Assembly (NCBI GenBank): GCA_965112155.1
Contig: OZ218112.1
DNA from: Podarcis liolepis
Lineage: Eukaryota
Direction: 5' to 3' (one strand)
DNA: 64,000 bases
Positions 1 to 24,902 of this stretch are shown in pieces. The first letter of the stretch is position 1. Every line of letters begins with the position of its first letter. The translations under genes were made by a program, and so were the position numbers. Under the pieces are notes generated by a model that was given only the letters and a program-made list of their open reading frames with translations, did no database searches and was not told where the DNA came from.

Positions 1-3000
1 GCGGCCTAGGCCCCTTTCTATGGCGGAAGGGTGGCATCGTTATCCGCCGCTGGCTGCCGGCCCAGGAGGGTGGCACAGGCCTGACTAGGTCTCAAAACGC
101 GGCCTAGTCACTTTCCTCAGTGGGGGGGGGGCGGCATTGCCCCCGCCACTGCCTGCTGCCCCAGGAGGGCAGCAGAGGCCTGAATAGGCCTCAAAACGCG
201 GCCTAGTCCCTTTTCTCAATGGCGGGGGGGGGCGGCATTGCCCACTGCCACTGCCTGACGTCACAGGCCTGACTAGGCCTCAAAACACAGCCTAGGCCCT
301 TTTCTCAGTGGCGGGGGGGCGGCATTGCCCCCCGCCACTGCCTGTCAGCCCAGGAGGGCGGCACAGGCCTGACTAGGCCTCAAAACGCGGCCTAGTCCCT
401 TTTCTCAGTGGCGGGGAGGTGGCATTGCCTCCCGCCGCTGCCTGCCGGCCCAGGAGGGCGGCACAGGCCTGACTAGGCCTCAAAACGTGGCCTAGTCCCT
501 TTTCTCAATGGCGGGGGGGGCGGCATTGCCCACCGCCGCTACCTGACGGCACAGACCTGACTAGGCCTCAAAACGTGGCCTAGTCCCTTTTCTCAGTGGC
601 GGGGAGGCGGCATTGCCACCCGCCGCTGCCTGCTGCCCCAGGAAGGCGGCACAGGCCTGACTAGGCCTCAAAACGCGGCCTAGTCCCTTTTCTCAATGGC
701 GGGGGTGGGGCGGCATTGCCCCCCGCCGCCGCCTGCCGACTCAGGAGGGCGGAACAGGCCTGACTAGGCCTCAAAACGCGGCCTAGTCCCTTTTCTCAGT
801 GGCTGGGAGGCGGCATTGCCACCTGCCGCTGCCTGACGGCACAGGCCTGACTAGGCCTCAAAACGCGGCCTAGGCCCTTTTCTCAGTGGCGGGGAGCCGG
901 CATTGCCCCCCGCCGCTGCCTGACCAGGCCCAGGAGGGCGGCACAGGCCTGACTAGGCCACAAAACGCAGCCTAGTCCCTTTTCTGAGTGGCGGAGAGGC
1001 GGCATCGCCACCTGCCGCTGCCTGCCGGCCCAGGAGGGTGGCACAGGCCTGACTAGGCCTCAAATTGTGGCCTAGTCCCTTTCATCAGTGGCGGTGGGGG
1101 CGACATTGCCCCCCACTATTGTCTGCTGCCCCAGAAGGGCGGCACAGGCTTGAATAGCCTTCAAAACGCGGCCTAGTCCCTTTTCTCAGTGGCGGAGAGG
1201 CGGCATCGCCACCCGCCGCTGCCTGCCGGCCCAGGAGGGTGGCACAGGCCTGACTAGGCCTCAAATTGCGGCCTAGTCCCTTTCATCAGTGGCGGTGGGG
1301 GCGGCATTGCCCCCCGCCACTGTCTGCTGCCCCAGGAGGGCGGCACAGGCCTGAATAGGCCTCAAAACGTGGCCTAGTCCCTTTTTTCAATGGCGGGGGA
1401 GCAGCATTGCCCACCGCCACTGCCTGACGGCACAGGCCTGACTAGGCCTCAAAACGTGGCCTAGTCCCTTTTCTCAGTGGCGGGGACCCGGCTTTAACCC
1501 CCCGCCGCTGCCTGTCAGCCCAGGAGGGCGGCACAGGCCTGACTAGGCCTCAAAACGCGGCCTAATCCCTTTTCTCAGTTGCAGGGGGTGGCATTGCCGC
1601 GTACCGGCCCAGCAGCGCAGCCTAGGCCTCACTAGGCCTCAAAACGTGGCCTAGTCCCTTTTCTCAGTGGGGGGGAGCCGGCATTAACCCCCCGCCGCTG
1701 CCTGTCAGCCCAGGAGGGCGGCACAGGCCTGACTAGGCCTCAAAACGCGGCCTAATCCCTTTTCTCAGTTGCAGGGGGTGGCATTGCCGCGTACCGCCGC
1801 GTACCGGCCCAGCAGCGCAGCCTAGGCCTCACTAGGCCTCAAAACGTGGCCTAGTCCCTTTCCTCAGTGGGGGGTTGGCATTGCCCACCGCCACTGCCTG
1901 ATGGCTCAGGCCTGACTAGGCCTCAAAACGTGGCCTAGTCCCTTTTCTCAGTGGCGGGGGGGGGCGGCATTGCCCACCACCGCTGCCTGATGGCACAGGC
2001 CTGACTAGGCCTCAAAACGCAGCCTAGTCCCTTTTCTCAATGGTGGGGGGGGCGGCATTGCCCACCGCCGCTGCCTGACGGCACAGGCCTGACTCGGCCT
2101 CAAAACATGGCCTAGTCCCTTTTCTCAGTGGGGGGGGGTCGGCATTGCCTCCGCCACTGCCTGACGGCACAGGCCTGACTAGGCCCAAAAACGTGGCATA
2201 AGCCCTTTTCTATGGCGGAGAGGTGGCATCGTTATCCGCCGCTGCCTGCCGGCCCAGGAGGGTGGCACAGGCCTGACTAGGCCACCAAACACGGCCTAGT
2301 CCCTTTTCTCACTGGCGGGGGGGGCAGGAGGGCGGCACAGGCCTGACTAGGCCTCAAAACGCGGCCTAGTCCCTTTTCTCAGTGGCGGGGGGAGCCAGCA
2401 TTGCCCCCCGCCGCTGCCTGATGGCACAGGCCTGACTAGGCCTCAAAACGCAGCCTAGTCCCTTTTCTCAATGGTGGGGGGGCGGCATTGCCCACCGCCG
2501 CTGCCTGATGGCACAGGCCTGACTAGGCCTCAAAACGCACCCTAGTCCATTTTTTCGATGGTGGGGGGGCGCCATTGCCCACCGCCGCTGCCTGACGGCA
2601 CAGGACTGACTAGGCCTCAAAACACAGCCTAATCCCTTTTCTCAGTTGCAGGGGGTGGCATTGCCGCGTACCGCCGCGTACCGGCCCAGCAGCGCAGCCT
2701 AGGCCTCACTAGGCCTCAAAACGTGGCCTAGTCCCTTTTCTCAGTGGGGGGGAGCCGGCATTAACCCCCCGCCGCTGCCTGTCGGCCCAGGAAGGCGGCA
2801 CAGGCCTGACTAGGCCTCAAAACGCGGCCTAGTCCCTTTCCTCAGTGGGGGGGTCGGCATTGCCCACCGCCACTGCCTGACGGCACACGCCCGACTAGGC
2901 CTCAAAACGCGGCCTAGGCCCTTTTCTCAGTGGCGGGGGGGGGCGGCATTGCCCCCCGCCACTGCCTGCTGCCCCAGGAGGGCGGCACAGGCCTGACTAG

Positions 3001-6000
3001 GCCTCAAAACGCGGCCTAGTCCCTTTTTTCAATGGCGGGGGGGCGGCATTGCTCACCGCCGCTGCCTGACTGCACAGGCCTGACTAGGCCTCAAAACACG
3101 GCCTAGGCCCTTTTTTCAATGGCGGGGGGGCGGCATTGCTCACCGCCGCTGCCTGACTGCACAGGCCTGACTAGGCCTCAAAACACGGCCTAGGCCCTTT
3201 TCTCAGTGGCGTTGGGGCGGCATTGCCCACCGCCGCTGCCTGATGGCACAGGCCTGACTAGGCCTCAAAACGCGGCCTAGTCCCTTTTCTCAGTAGGTGG
3301 GGGGGTCGGCATTGCCCACCGCCACTGCCTGACGGCACAGGCCTGACTAGGCCTCAAAACGCGGCCTAGGCCCCTTTCTATGGCGGAAGGGTGGCATCGT
3401 TATCCGCCGCTGGCTGCCGGCCCAGGAGGGTGGCACAGGCCTGACTAGGTCTCAAAACGCGGCCTAGTCACTTTCCTCAGTGGGGGGGGGGGCGGCATTG
3501 CCCCCGCCACTGCCTGCTGCCCCAGGAGGGCAGCAGAGGCCTGAATAGGCCTCAAAACGCGGCCTAGTCCCTTTTCTCAATGGCGGGGGGGGCGGCATTG
3601 CCCACCGCCACTGCCTGACGTCACAGGCCTGACTAGGCCTCAAAACACAGCCTAGGCCCTTTTCTCAGTGGCGGGGGGGCGGCATTGCCCCCCGCCACTG
3701 CCTGTCAGCCCAGGAGGGCGGCACAGGCCTGACTAGGCCTCAAAACGCGGCCTAGTCCCTTTTCTCAGTGGCGGGGAGGTGGCATTGCCTCCCGCCGCTG
3801 CCTGCCGGCCCAGGAGGGCGGCACAGGCCTGACTAGGCCTCAAAACGCGGCCTAGGCCCTTTTCTCAGTGGCGGGGAGGTGGCATCGTTACCCGCCGCTC
3901 CCTGCCGCCCCAGGAGGGCGGCTCAGGCCTGACTACGCCACCAAACATGGCCTAGTCCCTTTTCTCAGTGGCGGGGGGGGGGGGCGGCATTGCCCACCGC
4001 CGCTGCATGATGGCACAGGCCTGACTAGGCCTCAAAACGCACCCTAGTCCATTTTTTCGATGGTGGGGGGGCGCCATTGCCCACCGCCGCTGCCTGACGG
4101 CACAGGACTGACTAGGCATCAAAACACAGCCTAATCCCTTTTCTCAGTGGCAGGGGGTGGCATTGCCGCGTACCGGCCCAGCAGCGCGGCCCAGGCCTCA
4201 CTAGGCCTCAAAACGTGGCCTAGTCCCTTTTCTCAGTGGGGGGGAGCCGGCATTAACCCCCCGCCGCTGCCTGTCGGCCCAGGAAGGCAGCAGAGGCCTG
4301 ACTAGGCCTCAAAACGCGGCCTAGTCCCTTTCCTCAGTGGGGGGGTCGGCATTGCCCACCGCCACTGCCTGACGGCACAGGCCTTATTAGGCCTCAAAAC
4401 GCGGCCTAGTCCCTTTTCTCAGTGGCGGGGAGGTGGCATTGCCTCCCGCCGCTGCCGGCCGGCCCAGGAGGGCGGCACAGGCCCAACTAGGCCTCAAAAC
4501 GCGGCCTAGGCCCTTTTCTCAGCGGCGGGGGGGGCCGCATTGCCCCCCGCCACTGCCTGCTGCCCCAGGAGGGCGGCACAGGCCTGACTAGGCCTCAAAA
4601 CGCGGCCTAGTCCCTTTTTTCAATGGTGGGGGGGCAGCATTGCTCACCGCCGCTGCCTGGCTGCACAGGCCTGACTAGGCCTCAAAACACGGCCTAGGCC
4701 CTTTTCTCAGTGGCGGTGGGGAGGCATTGCCCACCGCCGCTGCCTGACGGCACAGGCCTGACTAGGCCTCAGAACGCGGCCTAGGCCCCTTTCTATAGCG
4801 GAGAGGTGGCATCGTTACCCGCCGCTGACTGCCGGCCCAGGAGGGTGGCACAGGCCTGACTAGGCCTCAAAACGCAGCCTAGTCGCTTTCCTCAGTGGGG
4901 GGGGGGGCGGCATTGCCCCCGCCACTGCCTGCTGCCCCAGGAGGGCGGCAGAGGCCTGAACAGGCCTCAAAACACGGCCTAGGCCCTTTTCTCAGTGGCG
5001 GGGGGGCGGCGGCATTGCCCCCCGCCACTGCCTGCTGCCCCAGGAGGGCGGCACAGGCCTGACTAGGCCTCAAAACGCGGCCTAGTCCCTTTCATCAGTG
5101 GCGGTGGGGGCGGCATTGTCCGCTGCCTGCTGTCCCAGGAGGGCGGTACAGGCCTGACTAGGCCTCAAAACGTGGCCTAGTCCCTTTTCTCAGTGGCGGG
5201 GAGGCGGAATTGCCACCCGCCGCTGCCTGCTGTCCCATGGGGGTGGCACAGGCCTGACTGGGCCTCAAAATGCGGCCTAGTCGCTTTTCTCAATGGCAGG
5301 GGTGGGGCAGCATTGCCCACCGCCACTGCCTGACGGCACAGGCCTGACTACGCCTCAAAACGCGGCCTAGTCCCTTTTCTCAGTAGGTGGGGGTGGTCGG
5401 CATTGCCCACCGCCACTGCCTGACGGCACAGGCCTGACTAGGCCTCAAAACGCGGCCTAGGCCCCTTTCTATGGCGGAAGGGTGGCATCGTTATCCGCCG
5501 CTGCCTGCCGGCCCAGGAGGGTGGCACAGGCCTGACTAGTCCTCAAAACGCGGCCTAGTCACTTTCCTCAGTGGGGGGGCGGCATTGCCCCCCACCACTG
5601 CCTGCTGCCCCAGGAGGGCGGCACAGGCCTGAATAGGCCTCAAAACGCGGCCTAGTCCCTTTTCTCAGTGGCTGGGAGGCGGCATTGCCACCTGCCGCTG
5701 CCTGACGGCACAGGCCTGACTAGGCCTCAAAACGCGGCCTAGGCCCTTTTCTCAGTGGCGGGGAGCCGGCATTGCCCCCCGCCGCTGCCTGACGGCCCAG
5801 GAGGGCGGCACAGGCCTGACTAGGCCACAAAACGCAGCCTAGTCCATTTTCTGAGTGGCGGAGAGGCGGCATCGCCACCTGCCGCTGCCTGCCGGCCCAG
5901 GAGGGTGGCACAGGCCTGACTAGGCCTCAAATTGTGGCCTAGTCCCTTTCATCAGTGGCGGTGGGGGCGACATTGCCCCCCACTATTGTCTGCTGCCCCA

Positions 6001-9000
6001 GGAGGGCGGCACAGGCTTGAATAGCCTTCAAAACGCGGCCTAGTCCCTTTTCTCAGTGGCGGAGAGGCGGCATCGCCACCCGCCGCTGCCTGCCGGCCCA
6101 GGAGGGTGGCACAGGCCTGACTAGGCCTCAAATTGCGGCCTAGTCCCTTTCATCAGTGGCGGTGGGGGCGGCATTGCCCCCCGCCACTGTCTGCTGCCCC
6201 AGGAGGGCGGCACAGGCCTGAATAGGCCTCAAAACGTGGCCTAGTGCCTTTTTTCAATGGCGGGGGAGCAGCATTGCCCACCGCCACTGCCTGACGGCAC
6301 AGGCCTGACTAGGCCTCAAAACGTGGCCTAGTCCCTTTTCTCTGTGGCGGGGAGGCGGCATTGCCACCCGCTGCTGCCTGCCGGCCCAGGAGGGCGGAAC
6401 AGGCCTGACTTGGCCTCAAAACGCGGCCTAGTCCCTTTTCTCAATGGCGGGGGTGGGGCGGCATTGCCTACCGCCGCTGCCTGACAGCACAGGCCTGACT
6501 AGGCCTCAAAATGCGGCCTAGTCCCTTTTCTCAGTGGTGGGGGGTGGCATTGCCCCCCGCCACTGCCTGCTGCCCCAGGAAGGCGGCACAGGCCTGACTA
6601 GGCCTCAAAACGCGGCCTAGTCCCTTTCATCAGTGGCGGTGGGGGCGGCATTGCCCCCCGCCGCTGCCTGCCGACCCGGGAGGGCGGAACAGGCCAGACT
6701 AGGCCTCAAAACGCGGCCTAGCAGCATTGCCCCCCGCCGCTGCCTGCAGGCCCAGGAGGGCGGCACAGGCCTGACTAGGCCTCAAAACACGGCCTAGTCC
6801 CTTTTCTCAATGGTGGGGGTGGGGCAGCATTGCCTACCGCCGCTGCCTGACGGCACAGGCCTGACTAGGCCTCAAAATGCGGCCTAGTCCCTTTTCTCAG
6901 TGGTGGGGGGTGGCATTGCCCCCCGCCACTGCCTGCTGCCCCAGGAAGGCGGCACAGGCTTGAATAGCCTTCAAAACGCGGCCTAGTCCCTTTTCTCAAT
7001 GGCGGGGGTGGGGCGGCATTGCCCCCCGCCGCTGCCTGCCGACCCAGGAGGGCGGAACAGGCCTGACTAGGCCTCAAAACGCGGCCTCGGCCCTTTTCTC
7101 AGTGGCGGGGAGCCGGCATTGCCCCCCGCCGCTGCCTGACGGCCCAGGAGGGCGGCACAGGCCTGACTAGGCCACAAAAGGCAGCCTAGTCCCTTTTCTG
7201 AGTGGCGGAGAGGCGGCATCGCCACCCGCCGCTGCCTGCCGGCCCAGGAGGGTGGCACAGGCCTGACTAGGCCTCAAATTGTGGCCTAGTCCCCTTCATC
7301 AGTGGCGGTGGGGGCGGCATTGCCCCCCACCACTGTCTGCTGCCCCAGGAGGGCGGCACAGGCTTGAATAGCCTTCAAAACGCGGCCTAGTCCCTTTTCT
7401 CAGTGGCGGAGAGGCGGCATCGCCACCCGCCGCTGCCTGCCGGCCCAGGAGGGTGGCACAGGCCTGACTAGGCCTCAAATTGCGGCCTAGTCCCTTTCAT
7501 CAGTGGCGGTGGGGGCGGCATTGCCCCCCGCCACTGTCTGCTGCCCCAGGAGGGCGGCACAGGCCTGAATAGGCCTCAAAACGTGGCCTAGTCCCTTTTT
7601 TCAATGGCGGGGGAGCAGCATTGCCCACCGCCACTGCCTGACGGCACAGGCCTGACTAGGCCTCAAAACGTGGCCTAGTCTCTTTTCTCTGTGGCGGGGA
7701 GGCGGCATTGCCACCCGCTGCTGCCTGCCGGCCCAGGAGGGCGGAACAGGCCTGACTTGGCCTCAAAACGCGGCCTAGTCCCTTTTCTCAATGGCGGGGG
7801 TGGGGCGGCATTGCCTACCGCCGCTGCCTGACAGCACAGGCCTGACTAGGCCTCAAAATGCGGCCTAGTCCCTTTTCTCAGTGGTGGGGGGTGGCATTGC
7901 CCCCCGCCACTGCCTGCTGCCCCAGGAAGGCGGCACAGGCCTGACTAGGCCTCAAAACGCGGCCTAGTCCCTTTCATCAGTGGCGGTGGGGGCGGCATTG
8001 CCCCCCGCCGCTGCCTGCCGACCCGGGAGGGCGGAACAGGCCAGACTAGGCCTCAAAACGCGGCCTAGCAGCATTGCCCCCCGCCGCTGCCTGCAGGCCC
8101 AGGAGGGCGGCACAGGCCTGACTAGGCCTCAAAAGGCGGCCTAGTCCCTTTTCTCAGTGGCGGGGAGGCGGCATTGCCACCAGCCGATGCCTGCTGCCCC
8201 AGCAGGGCGGCACAGGCCTGACTAGGCCTCAAAACACGGCCTAGTCCCTTTTCTCAATGGTGGGGGTGGGGCAGCATTGCCTACCGCCGCTGCCTGACGG
8301 CACAGGCCTGACTAGGCCTCAAAATGCGGCCTAGTCCCTTTTCTCAGTGGTGGGGGGTGGCATTGCCCCCCGCCACTGCCTGCTGCCCCAGGAAGGCGGA
8401 ACAGGCCTGACTAGGCCTCAAAACGCGGCCTAGTCCCTTTTCTCAATGGCGGGGGTGGGGCGGCATTGCCCCCCGCCGCTGCCTGCCGACCCAGGAGGGC
8501 GGAACAGGCCTGACTAGGGCTCAAAACGCGGCCTAGTCCCTTTTCTCAGTGGCTGGGAGGCGGCATTGCCACCTGCCGCTGCCTGACGGCACAGGCCTGA
8601 TTAGGCCTCAAAACGCGGCCTCGGCCCTTTTCTCAGTGGCGGGGAGCCGGCATTGCCCCCCGCCGCTGCCTGACGGCCCAGGAGGGCGGCACAGGCCTGA
8701 CTAGGCCACAAAAGGCAGCCTAGTCCCTTTTCTGAGTGGCGGAGAGGCGGCATCGCCACCCGCCGCTGCCTGCCGGCCCAGGAGGGTGGCACAGGCCTGA
8801 CTAGGCCTCAAATTGTGGCCTAGTCCCTTTCATCAGTGGCGGTGGGGGCGGCATTGCCCCCCACCACTGTCTGCTGCCCAAGGAGGGCAGCACAGGCCTG
8901 AATAGCCTTCAAAACGCGGCCTAGTCCCTTTTCTCAGTGGCGGAGAGGCGGCATCGCCACCCGCCGCTGCCTGCCGGCCCAGGAGGGTGGCACAGGCCTG

Positions 9001-11100
9001 ACTAGGCCTCAAATTGCGGCCTAGTCCCTTTCATCAGTGGCGGTGGGGGCGGCATTGCCCCCCGCCACTGTCTGCTGCCCCAGGAGGGCGGCACAGGCCT
9101 GAATAGGCCTCAAAACGCAGCCTAGTCCCTTTTTTCAATGGCGGGGGAGCAGCATTGCCCACCGCCACTGCCTGACGGCACAGGCCTGACTAGGCCTCAA
9201 AACGTGGCCTAGTCCCTTTTCTCAGTGGCGGGGAGGCGGCATTGCCACCCGCTGCTGCCTGCCGGCCCAGGAGGGCGGAACAGGCCTGACTAGGCCTCAA
9301 AACGTGGCCTAGTCCCTTTTCTCAGTGGGGGGGGGCGGCATTGCCCACCGCTGCTGCCTGACGGCACAGGAGTGCGGCACAGGCCTGACTAGGCCTCAAA
9401 ACACGGCCTAGTCCCTTTTCTCAGTGGGGGGGGGCGGCATTGTCCGCTGCCTGCTGCCCCAGGAGGGCGGCACAGGCCTGACTAGGCCTCAAAACATGGC
9501 CTAGTCCCTTTTCTCAGTGGCGGGGAGGCGGCATTGCCACCCGCTGCTGCCTGCCGGCCCAGGAGGGTGGAACAGGCCTGACTAGGCCTCAAAACGCGGC
9601 CTAGTCCCTTTTCTCAATGGCGGGGGGGCGGCATTGCCCACCGCCGCTACCTGACGGCACAGACCTGACTAGGCCTCAAAACGTGGCCTAGTCCCTTTTC
9701 TCAGTGGCGGGGAGGCGGCATTGCCACCCGCCGCTGCCTGCTGTCCCATGGGGGTGGCACAGGCCTGACTGGGCCTCAAAATGCGGCCTAGTCCCTTTTC
9801 TCAATGGCAGGGGTGGGGCGGAATTGCCACCCGCTGCTGCCTGCCGGCCCAGGAGGGCGGCACAGGCCTGACTAGGCCTCAAAACGCGGCCTAGTCCCTT
9901 TTCTCAATGGCGGGGGTGGGGCGGTATTGCCCACCCCCGCTGCCTGACGGCACAGGCCAGACTAGGCCTCAAAACGCGGCCTAGTCCCTTTTCTCAATGG
10001 CCGGGGTGGGGCGGCATTGCCTACCGCCGCTGCCTGACAGCACAGGCCTGACTAGGCCTCAAAATGCGGCCTAGTCCCTTTTCTCAATGGCGGGGGTGGG
10101 GCGGCATTGCCCCCCGCCGCTGCCTGCCGACCCGGGAGGGCGGCACAGGCCTGAATAGGCCTCAAAACGCAGCCTAGTACCTTTTTTCAATGGCGGGGGA
10201 GCAGCATTGCCCACCGCTACTGCCTGACGGCACAGGCCTGACTAGGCCTCAAAACGTGGCCTAGTCCCTTTTCTCAGTGGCGGGGAGGCGGCATTGCCAC
10301 CCGCTGCTGCCTGCCGGCCCAGGAGGGCGGAACAGGCCTGACTAGGCCTCAAAACGCGGCCTAGTCCCTTTTCTCAGTGGGGGGGGCGGCATTGCCCACC
10401 GCTGCTGCCTGACGGCACAGGAGTGCGGCACAGGCCTGACTAGGCCTCAAAACGCGGCCTAGTCCCTTTTCTCAGTGGGGGGGGGGCGGCATTGTCCGCT
10501 GCCTGCTGCCCCAGGAGGGCGGCACAGGCCTGAATAGGCCTCAAAACGTGGCCTAGTCCCTTTTCTCAGTGGCGGGGAGGCGGCATTGCCACCCGCTGCT
10601 GCCTGCCGGCCCAGCAGGGCGGAACAGGCCTGACTAGGCCTCAAAACGCGGCCTAGTCCCTTTTCTCAATGGCGGGGGGGGGCGGCATTGCCCACCGCCG
10701 CTACCTGACGGCACAGACCTGACTAGGCCTCAAAACGTGGCCTAGTCCCTTTTCTCAGTGGCGGGGAGGCGGCATTGCCACCCGCCGCTGCCTGCTGTCC
10801 CATGGGGGTGGCACAGGCCTGACTGGGCCTCAAAATGCGGCCTAGTCCCTTTTCTCAATGGCAGGGGTGGGGCGGTATTGCCCACCGCCACTGCCTGATG
10901 GCACAGGCCTGACTACGCCTCAAAACGCGGCCTAGTCCCTTTTTCTCAGTAGCGGGGGGGGCTGCATTGCCCCCCGCCGCTGCCTGCTGGCCCAGGAGGG
11001 TGGCACAGGCCCGACTAGGCCTCAAATTCGGCCTAGTCCCCTTTTTCAGTGGTGGGGGGGTGGCATTGCCCCCGCAGGAGGCGCCTGCTTACCCGGGAGG
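1..11100. repeat. GC-rich satellite array of ~100-bp and ~87-bp monomer variants with higher-order blocks; runs off the left edge of the window
   Basis: Core GGCACAGGCCTGACTAGGCCTCAAAACGCGGCCTAGTCCCTTTTCTCAGTGGCGG recurs continuously (e.g. gcacaggcct at 361 and 461, period 100). The short variant lacks the CCCAGGAGGG segment. Degenerates at ~11075-11100. Roughly 115-120 monomers (estimated from length). Confidence 0.97.
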
Positions 11101-11719
11101 CTCTGTTGAGATTTAAGATTTAATTTGTCTGTTGAGGCTTACTGTTGTGCTTGGTTGAAGCTGCTGCTGCCGACCCGAGTGGGATTCCCAGGCCCCAGCT
11201 AGGCAGCAGACACTGCCTGCTTGTTTATGCAGCTGGGGGGTGGCATTGCTGTCAGCCACTGGTGTTGCTGGCCAAAATGGAAGGCACGGGCCTCAGCTGG
11301 GCTGTTAGGCCGCCCTGCTTGTTTTGCCACCCGCACAAGGGGGCCACAAGGCGACCTTTTTGAACTGAATCACGCTGGGCTTGCCGGGCTGCAGGGCAAC
11401 CCCCTTCAGTTTTTCCTTATGGGGGGAGCTAAGTCAAGCCACATGGCGGTCATGCTTGCACCCCCCCCTGTTCCCCCAAGTTGGTGTTCAGGATGTGTGC
11501 TAACTGTGTCTATTTTTTGCAGTCTTAGCGTTTGTGCGCAGTTAGGTTGGCTGGTTCTGTCTTTCACCAAAACATTCTGATTGCAAATATAAATAAATCT
11601 AATAATTATAATTAATATAACAACAAACAAAAACAAACTAACAAACAAATACAACAAAGTGCCATCATACTTAGGTATTTGCAGGTCTTAGTAGTGGTTG
11701 ACTTGCTTCAAGGTGCATT

Positions 11720-13230
11720 ATGTCTCTAGCCGTGGCTGCTGATCAAAGAGAATTCTCCCCCTTGCACTCTCTTGGTGCCGTAGGGGTGGGCACCCCAAGA
11801 GCCACATCGAGGGGTACCCCTAGCAATGCCGTAAAGGCAGCCAACAGGATTAAAAAAAGGGCCTTGTCTTCCAGCCGGAAGGTCCCACCTATGAAGTTAA
11901 TTATCTCTAAGAAAAAAGTGAGGGATGATGGCCCCTCCACCTCTGATGCCAGGCCCTACAGGGCCCTTCTAAGAAGAAAAAGTGGGCATACACAGAGGAG
12001 CTCACTGCTGAGAGCGATAATTCCCAGTCCAGTGACGACGATGTGCAGGAATTGCTGGGTCAGAACCGCAGCCTGCAGCGTCGCCAGGCTAGGGCTAAGG
12101 AGCACTTAGATAAGTCTAAGTCCCCTCGTTGACGCTTTCGTGAGGGTAGGCGTAGGCATAGGTCACCTGTTTCAAGTTCATCAGACAGCTCCTCCAGCCC
12201 TGATTCGCGCAGAACACGTCACAGGAAGAAGAGGTCTTGCAGATCGAGGAAGCATGGGCGTAAGTTCAAGAGGGATTCTTCAGATGTGTCAGGTACGTGT
12301 GATTCCTCCAGTGGCGAGTTGGAAGAACAGTGCAAAGGGTACTGGGTTACTACCCACAAGGCCCCTGGCCTGCCTAGTTGGATTTGGGAACATCAGACCC
12401 AGCGCCAGCGCCGTACCTTTGGGGCCAAGGAGCCATGTGGGGAGGATGGGCTTGATGCGGAAGGGAAGGTGCGGGCTTCTAACTTCAACACCACGGATCA
12501 GCCTCCTGGCATCCGGCTTTAAAAGAATATACGCAATCGCATTCTAAATGGGGAATTTGTGGACTTGTTTGCCCTGCTCTCCCCGGCTTATTCTTGTAGT
12601 TCCAAGTTTAAGCCTGAATCGCGTCACAAGAAGGACAAGGCAGTGGATATTGATAGAACTTTTGACAATTGGCTAACTGCTTTCGCCTCTTACATGGGAT
12701 TGGTGGCCGCTGCTTACCCCGATAGGGCTTGGCACTTGGCTAACTATCTGGGCATTATCTTAAAAGCCAAAAAAAATGGCAGGGGACTCAGTGGCTTTGG
12801 CTTACGATGAGCTGTTCCGTGAGAGGGCTGCTGAAGAACCCATGGCCCGTTGGGACATCAAGGACAATGATCTTTGGTCCGAAGTAGTGGCCCCAAACTT
12901 CCAAAAAAGAGCTTTTGGGGAGAAGTCAGGTAAACCCCCCTCCAAAGTGCAAAGGGTGGCTATATCAACATGTTGGGAGTTTAATAATGGGTTGTGCAGC
13001 AGGGACCGATGCCGCTTTGACCATGCTTGTGAGCATTGTAGTGGTCCTCACTCACGGACTAAGTGTTTTCGGCTAAGCCCCCTTTTCGCAGTTTTCGAAA
13101 AGCAGGATTGGGGAGTGGAGCCAAGGATGCCAAGGGAGACTCAGGAGCCTCTACCTCTGGAGCCCAGTAAGCCAAGGCTGCCTCCCGAAAATGAGGTTGA
13201 GGCACCACAGACAGGGTTTAGCGTGTGTGC
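11720..13230 (+). pseudogene. Decayed ORF1 (gag-like) of a DIRS/Ngaro-type tyrosine-recombinase retrotransposon
   Basis: Stitching the frames gives a K/R/S-rich N-terminus, then ...PPGIRL*KNIRNRILNGEFVDLFALL...RTFDNWLTAFASYMGLVAAAYPDRAWHLANYLGII...ALAYDELFRERAAEEPMARWDIKDNDLW...CWEFNNGLCSRDRCRFDHACEHCSGPHSRTKC (Cys/His zinc fingers). These motifs are typical of vertebrate DIRS/Ngaro ORF1. Lesions: frameshift near 11950-11970, TGA 12130-12132, TAA 12520-12522, frameshift in the A-run 12769-12776. No RT, RNase H or recombinase follows. Confidence 0.85.
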
Positions 13231-13231
13231 C

Positions 13232-13975
13232 CGCAATGCATTCATTTTAATGGCCAACACTCTACCTAACAATGAAAGTTTCATCCTATCCCATATTTGC
13301 AAGTTTCTTTTAATATCCTCCCAAGTTTTCAAATAATAATCTTTACACAAATTGATATACTTTGCTGTTAACCATACAGTGGTACCTCTGGTTATGTACT
13401 TAATTTGTTCTGGAGGTACGTTCTTAACCTGAAACTGTTCTTAACCTGAAGCACCACTTTAGCTAATGGGGCCTCCTGCTGCAGCCACGCCGCTGCCGGA
13501 GCACAATTTCTGTTCTCATCCTGAAGCAAAGTTCTTAACCCAAGGTACTATTTCTGGGTTAGCAGAGTCTGTAAACTGAATTGTATGTAACCCGAGGTAC
13601 CACTGTACTCCTAAATATTTAACCTTTTTTTAATCTTTAAACCGGATATAACTTGTAGTAAATCTTAACATCATCTTTAATATTTTTTACCAGGAGCTTG
13701 GCTTTATTTTTATTTCTTTTAAGACCTGCTACTTCTCAAAAAAAAAAAAAAAAGACTCTGCTGGATCTGCTACAGATATCACCGCATCATCTGCAAATAC
13801 TTTTAGTTTGTACTTTCTTTATCCCACCCTTTTCCCTTTAATATCCTGATTACATCTTATTCTTTGCACCAAAACTTCTAAAACTATTATAAACAATGAA
13901 GGTGACAATGGACAGCCTTGTCTAGTTCCTTTTGTTATTTTACAGTTCTCACTCAACATTATTTACTATCAGAAA
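13232..13975 (-). mobile_element. L1-clade LINE ORF2 reverse-transcriptase fragment, interrupted by a MITE
   Basis: Minus-strand translation gives ITKGTRQGCPLSPSLFIIVLEVL, YKLKVFADDAVI (FADD catalytic motif) and YLKTWEDIKRNLQIWDRMKLSLLGRVLAIKMNA. Confidence 0.9.
13377..13605. mobile_element. Tc1/mariner-superfamily (pogo/Tigger-like) MITE, family A
   Basis: TIR CAGTGGTACCTC...GAGGTACCACTG flanked by TA on both sides; inserted within the L1 fragment. Confidence 0.9.
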
Positions 13976-16611: not shown

Positions 16612-17914
16612 GTTTACATGCAAGTTATCACTAAGAGCCTGCAAAAAATCCTGAATTGTTTTCAAGTGGAGTTGATGGTGGAGCTTCTTTCTTTAACCAA
16701 TACACCAAAACCAGACATGCAAATCTGAGCTGCTGAGTCTACAGTCATCCTGAGTTCCTCCAGTCAGGATCAGAAACAAAGAGAATGCATTAAAGCTGAT
16801 CAGGCAAAGCAAAAAATACCTTGCCTTGTGTATATACACAAGTAAGGAGATGAATCACTTGCACCCCTCGGGAACACAAATCCAGTCTTGTCAATATGAC
16901 AGAGAAGCAGGTGTTGGGTGCTTCAAAGCTACTCTTTAAACACACAAGTTTGCTTTTTCAGCACTTCAGAGAGGTGTAGGCTGAGAAAAGACAAGCACGC
17001 ACAGGAACATAAGCGCTTGTGAGATACCCACATTTAATGATGAATAGTTGGGTGGGTGGGTGTCCCCCCAACTGCTTATGTGGAACTGATCTCTATGTAA
17101 GCCAAACAATCATTGGAGGGCAGTGCAGAGAAGGTTCCTCTCCCACTTGTGTTCTAAGGCAGGCTAGCTGGACAGAGAAGGTGAAAAGTTCCATGGGGCT
17201 AGTTTCTACATCTTGAACCTAATGGTCAAACGAGATGTTACTCTAATTGGCAACTACATCTGGGAATTTTTAATAATGATAATCCTAGGGGGTGGCTGGT
17301 TATCATTGGGACCAAAGCATGTGGAGAGGTGAGGTTTAAGCCTTCCCTACCTGGCTGTATTTTAAAAAGAAGCACTGTTCAAGTGGTGCAATTAGTATCA
17401 GAAATGTCAAGATGAGCTCCTCCCACCTTATAGCATAGGTTGTTAGTTTTCATTGGTATCACAGATGAAAAGGACTAAACCTCCCTTTCCTGGCATGCTG
17501 TGGACCCAATGAAAACCAACCACCCCCTGAACTCCTAGCAGAGGCAGATTTAGGGGAGTGTGATTGGTTCAGTCACACTGGGCGCAGAGCCTATGGGGCA
17601 CCACAACTATTATGTAGAATGGAATACGAGAGGCAGGGAGGTGTTAATTTTGGTGTTGCACAGGGTGCCACTGAAATTTGACACCCTAAGGTCCACCATT
17701 GCAGATGTGGGAGGAGAATAAATCACTTTCTTTGCATTTAACATGTATCCTACATAGTTCACACTTCCTGAAACATTACATCAACACAGCCAAGCCATCC
17801 TTTGAAACTCGGGCTTCTCCAAATCTTGCAGCCAAGCACTGTGATTGATATATATATATATATGCAGGTTTTGGTGTCCTCGGGTGTCTTCCCGTGTAAA
17901 AGTTGGGGTGTCTA

Positions 17915-17954
17915 GGCGACGTTTCGACGAGGTCTCACTCGTCATCTTCAGGCT
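17915..17954 (-). ncRNA. Mirror copy of the hammerhead motif
   Basis: Exact reverse complement of 18021-18060 within the palindrome. Confidence 0.7.
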
Positions 17955-18020
17955 GGTGCTTTCGGCTTCTTGTTACTGGAACAGAGCGCTCTGTTCCAGT
18001 AACAAGAAGCCGAAAGCACC

Positions 18021-18060
18021 AGCCTGAAGATGACGAGTGAGACCTCGTCGAAACGTCGCC
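18021..18060 (+). ncRNA. Minimal hammerhead ribozyme motif (Penelope-type)
   Basis: CTGAAGA (18024-18030), T, stem II GACGAG/CTCGTC with loop TGAGAC, GAAAC (18050-18054), then a GTC cleavage triplet. Stem III is reduced to palindromic ACGT; stem I is short (GC/GC). Confidence 0.7.
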
Positions 18061-18138
18061 TAGACACCCCAACTTTTACACGGGAAGACACCCGAGGACA
18101 CCAAAACCTGCATTCCTGTACCCGTGAAAATCTACGAA

Positions 18139-23272: not shown

Positions 23273-24902
23273 CCGTATTTTTCGCTCCATAGGACGCTCC
23301 TGACCAAAAGACGCACCAAGTTTTTAGAGCAGGAAAACAAGAAAAAAAAATCTGACTCAAATTTTGTACTAAACTATTTAAAACAGCAAAGTGTGTGGCT
23401 CCTGTCCACTTTGCTGCTTTAAAGCGAGCCATGGTATATAATGATGAGAATGGAAAAAGGACACATTCCATTATAATGTAGCTGTTTTCATTATCACTGG
23501 GAAGTCAGTATTGGCAGCAGTCACAAAAACTAAAATTTGAGCATTTTACTGTTATTAATCAAGAATATTAATAGTCAGGGAGAGAAACCAGGGCTGTGCA
23601 AATGAGAAGTGCTTGGAGTATGGAGGAACAGCAAAAAGATAACAACAACAACAACAACAACAACAACAATAATAATAATTTATTATTTATACCCCGCCCA
23701 TCTGGCTGGGCCTCCCCAGCCACTCTGGGCGGCTTCCAAAAGAATATTAAAATACTGTGAAGCTAAAGATCAAATAATTGTGCTCCAGTTCCTAAATCTC
23801 TGAAGTTTTCTCAAAACAGGCATGGTTATTTTGAAAGGAAGATTCAGAATGGAGTGGCTGAGCAAAGAACAGAGGAAAAGAGGGCAGATAAATAGCTTCC
23901 ATTCAATACCAAGAGAACACAATGTTTTTGGTTTAGTATAGGTGGACTGTACTTGTAAGAATTTGTATAATGAATTATAGAGTTGGAGTGGAATATCAGA
24001 GCCTCTTTTCAGCAGTAAAGATTAGCTACTAGGAACATGGTCCACACACACACAGAATGTCTGGTTATAGCTGTGCAGTTTAAACTGTTCCTGAGCCAGA
24101 TACCTGCTCAGTTTTAGCTGAAATTACTATTACTGGTTTGTGGAGATGCTTTGCGTGTATTTATGACTATTTCCCCAAAACTGTTACTTGAAGAAATCCC
24201 CAAACTTACCATTTTTAAACTTCAAATGGAGCTCAGAATCCAGTTAGGCAATCCTTTGCAGTTGAATTAGGAGGCACTAAGAGACAGCAATTTGCTGCTC
24301 CCCACCCCCACCCTCCACCCCAGGAGCACACAGCCTTCCCTCTGCTTGCAAACCTTGCAAACCTTGTCGGGACTTCAGGGGAAAGCAAAGTCTGTAGGCA
24401 GAGCAGTGTAGCTCCCCACCCCCCACCCCCCAAAAGCACCCCAGCAGCACACAATCTTCCCTCTGCTTGCAAACCTTGCAAACCTTGTCGGGACTTCAGG
24501 GGAAAGCAAAGGCTGTAGGCAGAGCAGTGTGGCTCCTCCCCCCACCCCCAAAAAGCACCCCAGCAGCACACAGCCTTCCCTCTGCTTGCAAACCTTGTCG
24601 GGACTTCAGGGGAAAGCAGAGGCTGCCGGCAGAGCCGCGTGGCTCCTCCCCCCATCCCCAAAGAGCAGCCCGGGAGCGCACAGCCTTCCCGCTGCTTGCA
24701 AACCTTGTCGGGACTTCAGGGGAAAGCAGAGGCTGCCGGCAGAGCACCGTGGCTCCTCCCCCCAGCCCCAAAGAGCAGCCCGGGAGCACAGGACAACAGC
24801 GATTTGGCTCCAGGGAACACACATTCACTCCATAAGACGCACAGACTTTTCCCCTTACTTTTTAGGAGGGAAAAAGTGCGTCCTATGGAGCGAAAAATAC
24901 GG
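23273..24902. mobile_element. Non-autonomous Tc1/mariner-superfamily (Tc2/pogo-like) DNA transposon, 1630 bp
   Basis: Perfect 25-bp TIR CCGTATTTTTCGCTCCATAGGACGC / GCGTCCTATGGAGCGAAAAATACGG; TA duplication; subterminal repeat CTCCATAAGACGC ~24828; no transposase ORF. Confidence 0.92.
24295..24790. repeat. Minisatellite of ~110-121-bp units (about 4.5 copies) inside the transposon
   Basis: GGGACTTCAGGGGAAAGC at 24369, 24490, 24600 and 24710. Confidence 0.95.

Follow-up and report, generated by a model that had tools for sequence, protein, structure and literature searches.

The tandem array at the left of the window (the whole 64,000-nucleotide stretch of Podarcis liolepis DNA analysed here) lies inside a single, pol-deleted copy of a Ngaro-type retrotransposon. 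Very probably it grew in place after this copy had inserted, by repeated duplication on the chromosome and within a predicted intron of the 5′ UTR. The nesting of the array in the element, the copy numbers of its unit in paralogues, its restriction to a single locus, a unit variant private to it, young duplications of blocks and the anatomy of the family were all observed directly.

Extent and internal order of the array

Fifty kb left of the window were added to the analysis. Anchoring of the units and repeat analysis placed the array on the plus strand at G000:C21:24549768-24563075 (window part 1..11073), in the middle of its contig (24.55 of 51.7 Mb). The array was introduced in the preliminary description as an 11-kb satellite; its real length is 13.3 kb, with its start at G000:C21:24549768. 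In total, 13,308 bp hold 140 units (141 anchors), with 11.07 kb in the window and 2,233 bp to the left of it. Most units measure 85–103 bp and the GC content of the array is approximately 66%. This length rests on the assembly. Two read runs, maybe from the source sample, share 0.58 and 0.52 of the array words, and eighteen further runs share 0.08–0.18. In two raw-read runs of other individuals, consulted on unit number, single-copy DNA was hardly covered, and there was no positive control. Rfam gave 0 matches at three loci.

The mean identity between array units is 86.8%, and at 97% identity they form 68 clusters. Exact duplicates account for 26 units, and 113 of the 140 lie in blocks duplicated at ≥96%. 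The higher-order structure consists of blocks of 1,052, 1,347 and approximately 3,360–3,465 bp, with lags of 11–37 units; blocks of 7–11 units recur at lags of 1,052, 1,347, 3,362, 3,465 and 4,859 bp. The five longest block pairs differ by 30 substitutions in 4,142 columns (0.7%), with 3–10 substitutions per pair. A short unit type lacking 13 bp makes up 53 of the 140 units; a pattern search for its join yielded 36 matches genome-wide, all 36 within the array. Folding of the plus strand indicated hairpins in all four units tested (z −2.2 to −3.2), while diverged leader sequence gave z values of −0.8 and −0.2.

Genome-wide counts were obtained by pattern searches; a DNA similarity search with the unit missed the array itself. 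Allowing up to two mismatches, the unit core had 167 matches in the genome and none for the reversed control; the exact core had 102 matches, 85 of them in the array. Since 138 of the 167 matches fall in the array and 27 in 15 copies of the element (the remaining 2 were unplaced), the assembly contains no second array. As a long head-to-tail array with higher-order structure, the repeat agrees with the strict definition of satellite DNA. In abundance it does not: a satellite would be expected at high copy number, at a number of loci or in heterochromatic blocks, but the 1.57-Gb assembly has one array. The repeat is thus better called a single-locus array, midi-satellite or nascent satellite, and further arrays may exist unassembled.

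The element around the array and its relatives

The window's copy reads, in order, 5′ end of the element, 415 bp, array, leader, broken ORF1, deletion and the last 37 bp. Past the left end of the array, where the preliminary description had advised looking for the 5′ terminal repeat of the element, 415 bp of element 5′ end are indeed present. This segment occurs in many other copies, with at least 45 matches (40 of 223 candidates were scored), and on this side the copy is 88.6% identical over 555 bp to a copy on C20 bearing five units. To the right of the array, the leader (11075..11522, plus strand), which forms the 3′ part of the predicted intron, diverges by 7.5–15% from other copies. It is followed by a broken gag-like ORF1 (11720..13194, plus strand) in four frame pieces with in-frame stops, encoding a Ser/Arg-rich middle and Cys/His motifs at the C-terminus. 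The pieces are 85–90% identical to P0001, a 439-aa database protein of a lacertid lizard labelled by its source as a C3H1-type domain protein. The first 31 residues of P0001 match 11720-11812 at 90%, which backs the ATG at 11720. P0001 skips the stretch 11813-11967, perhaps owing to an indel or to another intron. Pfam contained no family for the four ORF1 pieces or for two database relatives.

ORF1 is the only reading frame that remains in the window's copy of what had been described as a DIRS/Ngaro-type element. Likeness to pol-bearing copies ends at 13198, and the deletion junction (13195..13199, plus strand) marks the loss of approximately 3.3 kb containing reverse transcriptase (RT), RNase H, recombinase, the SGNH ORF and most of repeat B. 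Comparison with other copies identified 13200..13236 (plus strand) as the final 37 bp of terminal repeat B; they end in AA and border on host flank. The ends of the family are sharp: 5′ ends begin with AAT in 26 of 27 cases, and 3′ ends finish with AA in 14 of 16, with unrelated flanks. These ends would fit integration by recombination at an AA core. The copy at G000:C20:15502034-15504527 ends no more than 2 bp from the point at which the window's copy is deleted, but the gag tree does not place the two as sisters. Descent of both from a shared non-autonomous master was considered and rejected, as the tree pairs the C20 copy with a pol-bearing one (support 100/99). This copy and two others clipped at the 3′ end, L092 and L075, are flanked by target duplications of 44, 16 and approximately 7 bp, an unusual feature in a recombinase element.

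At fifteen other loci, members of the family carry one to five units at the matching place in the leader, flanked throughout by the same pieces of upstream and downstream leader wherever these are preserved. Five unit cores are found at C20:15.50 Mb, three each at C20:23.05, C20:13.96 and C9:57.26 Mb, two each at C16:7.42 and C19:11.60 Mb, and one elsewhere. Full units outside the array (11 units) are 83.5–96.5% identical to the array unit that each resembles most. Shared flanks or a common fold-back suggest that four loci at C16:7.37-7.50 Mb probably go back to one insertion that was duplicated, so the independent insertions number about a dozen. The region C16:7.37-7.57 Mb holds five element copies with shared flanks where compared, and in four of them the 5′ end is replaced by an inverted (fold-back) unit. 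The proposal that the array does not end in unrelated DNA and has grown from the leader of the element is supported by its nesting and by the units in other copies. The contrary pattern, copies lacking units and a satellite with no element beside it, was not encountered: units occur at 15 loci and no array is free. Of the two settings that had been proposed, a site of satellite birth agrees with these data, whereas an array-carrying family does not, since the long array belongs to the window's copy alone and the others hold one to five units.

Two leader segments had been singled out as monomer-like. Both read as given, at 11160-11183 and 11235-11293 in the orientation of the array, and they lie 560 and 427 bp upstream of the ATG at 11720, in accordance with the earlier estimate of roughly 430–560 bp. 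To test their resemblance, they were locally aligned with three natural units of the array, and the scores were compared with those of 1000 dinucleotide shuffles. The diverged unit containing the second segment (11230..11300, plus strand) scored 49, reached by 0 of 1000 shuffles (mean 19.8, maximum 34), and that containing the first (11155..11215, plus strand) scored 38, reached by 1 of 1000 (mean 20.6). Shuffles readily reached the scores of control stretches (11330-11520, 926/1000; gag 12000-12200, 131/1000; first 278 bp of the element, 646/1000), and the stretch just upstream of the array was borderline (44/1000). Both diverged units are present in other copies, including those with one unit only, which rules out that they are the decayed edge of the array. 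They are older sister units of the same module and not the direct parent of the array unit; the leader on both sides of the array reads as older versions of this module.

The units are probably situated in a 5′ UTR intron, because conserved motifs for a donor, a branch point and an acceptor bracket them. The putative donor GAG|GTAAGT lies at G000:C21:24549606, 253 bp into the element and left of the window; GT is present at 16 of 16 sites and GTAAGT at 14. A predicted branch point CTAAC, a pyrimidine tract and a 3′ splice site CAG (11500..11522, plus strand) recur in all six copies in which this region is retained, members of the most diverged subfamily among them. The predicted intron encloses all units and measures approximately 0.6 and 1.0 kb in two ordinary copies and 13.9 kb in the window's copy. 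When intronless copies were sought by pattern, 5 matches resulted (control 2), none of them in the element. This would be compatible with copying of unspliced RNA only, splicing itself being predicted from motifs. At C13:1.69-1.76 Mb and on C271, the element 5′ end recurs every 11–18 kb beside repeats of 84-bp period. Such a pattern is expected of a duplicated zinc-finger gene cluster, where the nearby splice donor may serve host transcripts.

By its domains and its repeat layout, which match published descriptions, the family is assigned to the Ngaro-type tyrosine-recombinase retrotransposons. The Ngaro half of the earlier label is thereby retained and a DIRS1-type element is dismissed, because the terminal repeats are direct and there is no methyltransferase. 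RVT_1 was found above cut-off in two copies (E 1.6e-10 and 2.1e-11), and longer copies contain an RNase H-like frame with a weak RVT_3 match (E 0.058). The recombinase ORF follows RNase H and matches the Phage integrase N-terminal SAM-like domain at E 4.7e-4 and 9.5e-5, below the curated cut-off; its catalytic domain is broken and had no profile match. Behind it, as in the amphibian type, an SGNH ORF in the longer copies gave a weak Lipase_GDSL_2 match (E 0.0067). The RNase H frame overlaps that of the recombinase by 73 nt, so that a methyltransferase would have no space after RNase H, and the profile search of the longer copies detected no such domain.

Self-comparisons showed direct terminal repeats and no inverted ones of the DIRS1 kind. 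The split direct repeats A1-ORFs-B1-A2-B2 were recovered piecewise: a B1-A2-spacer-B2 end at C13:3.56 Mb (B1/B2 89%), A1...B-A2 at C14:0.88 Mb (83%) and A1...A2-B2 at C21:38.72 Mb (90–96%). The anatomy is assembled from several broken copies, none of which combines intact split repeats with all ORFs. Five matches to a pattern spanning the B-A junction (control 0) comprise three true junctions, a plain 5′ end and an unrelated sequence; one of the true junctions belongs to the complete B1-A2-spacer-B2 end. Short A+B relics are common in the genome. Copies on C20 are often interrupted by nested elements; a 1,246-aa open LINE-type frame (L026 2827-6567) and an LTR-element insertion (L038 3641-6586) are likewise nested in family copies.

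As described for the Ngaro-like elements DIRS-53_XT and DIRS-54_XT of Xenopus (PMC9210276) and those of Cafeteria (PMC8547959), the lizard family has overlapping gag-like, RT/RNase H, recombinase and SGNH ORFs, split direct repeats and solo A+B relics, and lacks a methyltransferase. Repeat A measures 236 bp in Xenopus (PMC9210276) and approximately 214 bp in the lizard family, which differs from the Xenopus and Cafeteria descriptions in its B repeat of approximately 410 bp and in a 220-bp spacer that separates A2 from B2. Neither 'tandem' nor 'satellite' appears in the main text on the Xenopus elements (PMC9210276).

Timing and mode of growth

Compared with its nearest copies, the unique parts of the window's element differ by 5.3% (gag), 7.5% (leader) and 8.4% (5′ end), with a best identity of 96% and an overall distance of 4–8%. 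Because the short unit is private to the array and the blocks differ by 0.7% against 4–8% between copies, growth most probably took place after insertion, on the chromosome. On average, the units are about as far from one another as the element copies are, and the first expansion steps may thus be nearly as old as the insertion. In another organism, one contig carries the short unit in tandem and two more match the leader and ORF1 without a difference, over 135 and 134 bases; among the contigs listed, none bridges the right junction of the array. Probably the expansion preceded the split from the lineage of this organism, as these single contigs suggest.

We propose that the GC-rich leader descends from an ancient tandem run, now decayed, of a single hairpin module of about 100 bp, in which a young unit would have been duplicated to one to five units while the family was mobile. 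One copy would then have integrated at an AA core at the present site and lost its enzymes. Slippage at the hairpin-rich unit could have supplied enough units for unequal exchange or gene conversion; the unit shortened by 13 bp would have arisen at the locus, and duplication of multi-unit blocks of 1–3.4 kb would have brought the array to 140 units. A copy devoid of RT and recombinase that bears private, young duplications points to this sequence, in which slippage comes first and unequal exchange or conversion later, although the data make no distinction between slippage and unequal exchange. If the leader is spliced, the number of units would be cost-free for ORF1 translation, and the family could therefore tolerate them. 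Most likely, the array is neutral.

Circular DNA intermediates had been hinted at as the driver of amplification. They gain no support from variants and block duplications that are private to a dead copy, and the appeal to circles is weakened by the report that DIRS-1 cDNA is mostly linear and single-stranded (PMC7192593). Amplification during replication, by jumps of the reverse transcriptase or by rolling-circle copying of a circular intermediate, with insertion of an already long array, is accordingly very improbable. The unit number does vary from one to five in mobile copies, and the first few units may well stem from a replication-linked change, but the blocks, at 0.3–1.2% divergence, are far younger than the distance of the copy to its relatives, the short unit is private to the array, and rolling-circle copying would repeat the whole element and not one internal unit. 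We likewise consider it highly unlikely that the leader took up a unit from an independent satellite, the long array being a relic or a re-expansion. Such a capture could account for the most diverged subfamily (C21:38.72, C20:13.19 and C13:2.59 Mb), which has no recognisable units, and collapsed satellites can be missing from an assembly. The assembly, however, holds no free array of the unit, and older versions of the module on both sides of the array are what an origin of the unit inside the leader would predict; in two other organisms, contig depth summed over the unit, a weak measure with no positive control, was only a few times that over the leader.

There is similarly little reason to believe that near-identical blocks were duplicated by the assembly and that far fewer units are real. 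Exact duplicates exist, and no independent long read was observed across the whole array. However, 68 clusters cannot derive from a few units, the members of each block pair differ by several substitutions, and the contig of the other organism carries the short unit in tandem as well. Growth in place thus remains our preferred explanation. Whether this vertebrate Ngaro family has a spliceosomal 5′ UTR intron that acts as a nursery of repeats, with splicing hiding the repeat from translation of ORF1 and unspliced genomic RNA spreading seeds of one to five units, one of which was already expanding before this species and a relative parted and became a higher-order array, is in our view an evenly balanced question.

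Known satellite donors and neighbouring sequences

Satellites of Lathyrus sativus have been traced to tandem repeats in the 3′ UTR of Ogre/Tat LTR-retrotransposons (PMC7004042). Both systems have a short tandem run that is dispersed with its retroelement and forms a long array in a few copies. The lizard donor, in contrast, is a tyrosine-recombinase element in a vertebrate, its repeat lies in the 5′ leader and is predicted to be intronic, and one mid-contig locus has expanded, whereas Ogre/Tat gave rise to an abundant pericentromeric family (PMC7004042). In squamates, SINE-derived satellites (sSats) are known (PMC10702118). They likewise are arrays from part of a retroelement with parent sequence at the array ends and reflect early satellite birth. 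In sSats a piece of the SINE is duplicated anew, whereas the Ngaro unit was already in tandem in a mobile family and both ends of the element are kept.

Full-text searches of the literature turned up no array attributed to a DIRS or Ngaro element, and word searches of PMC13130569, PMC3783388 and PMC6681497 yielded no relevant passage. Subscription journals and repeat databases lay outside these searches, and repeat libraries in supplements or Repbase/Dfam may already contain the family. If the nursery reading is true, this would be the first satellite-type array from a tyrosine-recombinase retrotransposon, with stages from 1 to 140 units in one genome. The general route from a retroelement-internal repeat to an array is already established in plants, flies and squamates. 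The list of elements known to give rise to satellite-type arrays gains Ngaro elements, and motifs point to an intron in their leader. Seeds of 1, 2, 3 and 5 units, both parent ends, a private variant and datable duplications make up an unusually complete record of the start of an array. The orthologous site in public lacertid assemblies could date its growth and reveal its speed and why one of about a dozen seeds took off.

As to host genes, 29 of the longer frames in 15,868-60,104 gave one match, a piece of LINE-type RT; short exons would escape this search. Positions 13375-13607 of the window hold a very high-copy short element, MITE-like and with sharp ends in four read runs. A near-perfect inverted repeat of approximately 120 bp per arm lies between TA runs at 17870-18120. 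Finally, a second small tandem run (24354-24790) has a period of 110 and 3.9 copies, and adjoins an element that we take to be a SINE.
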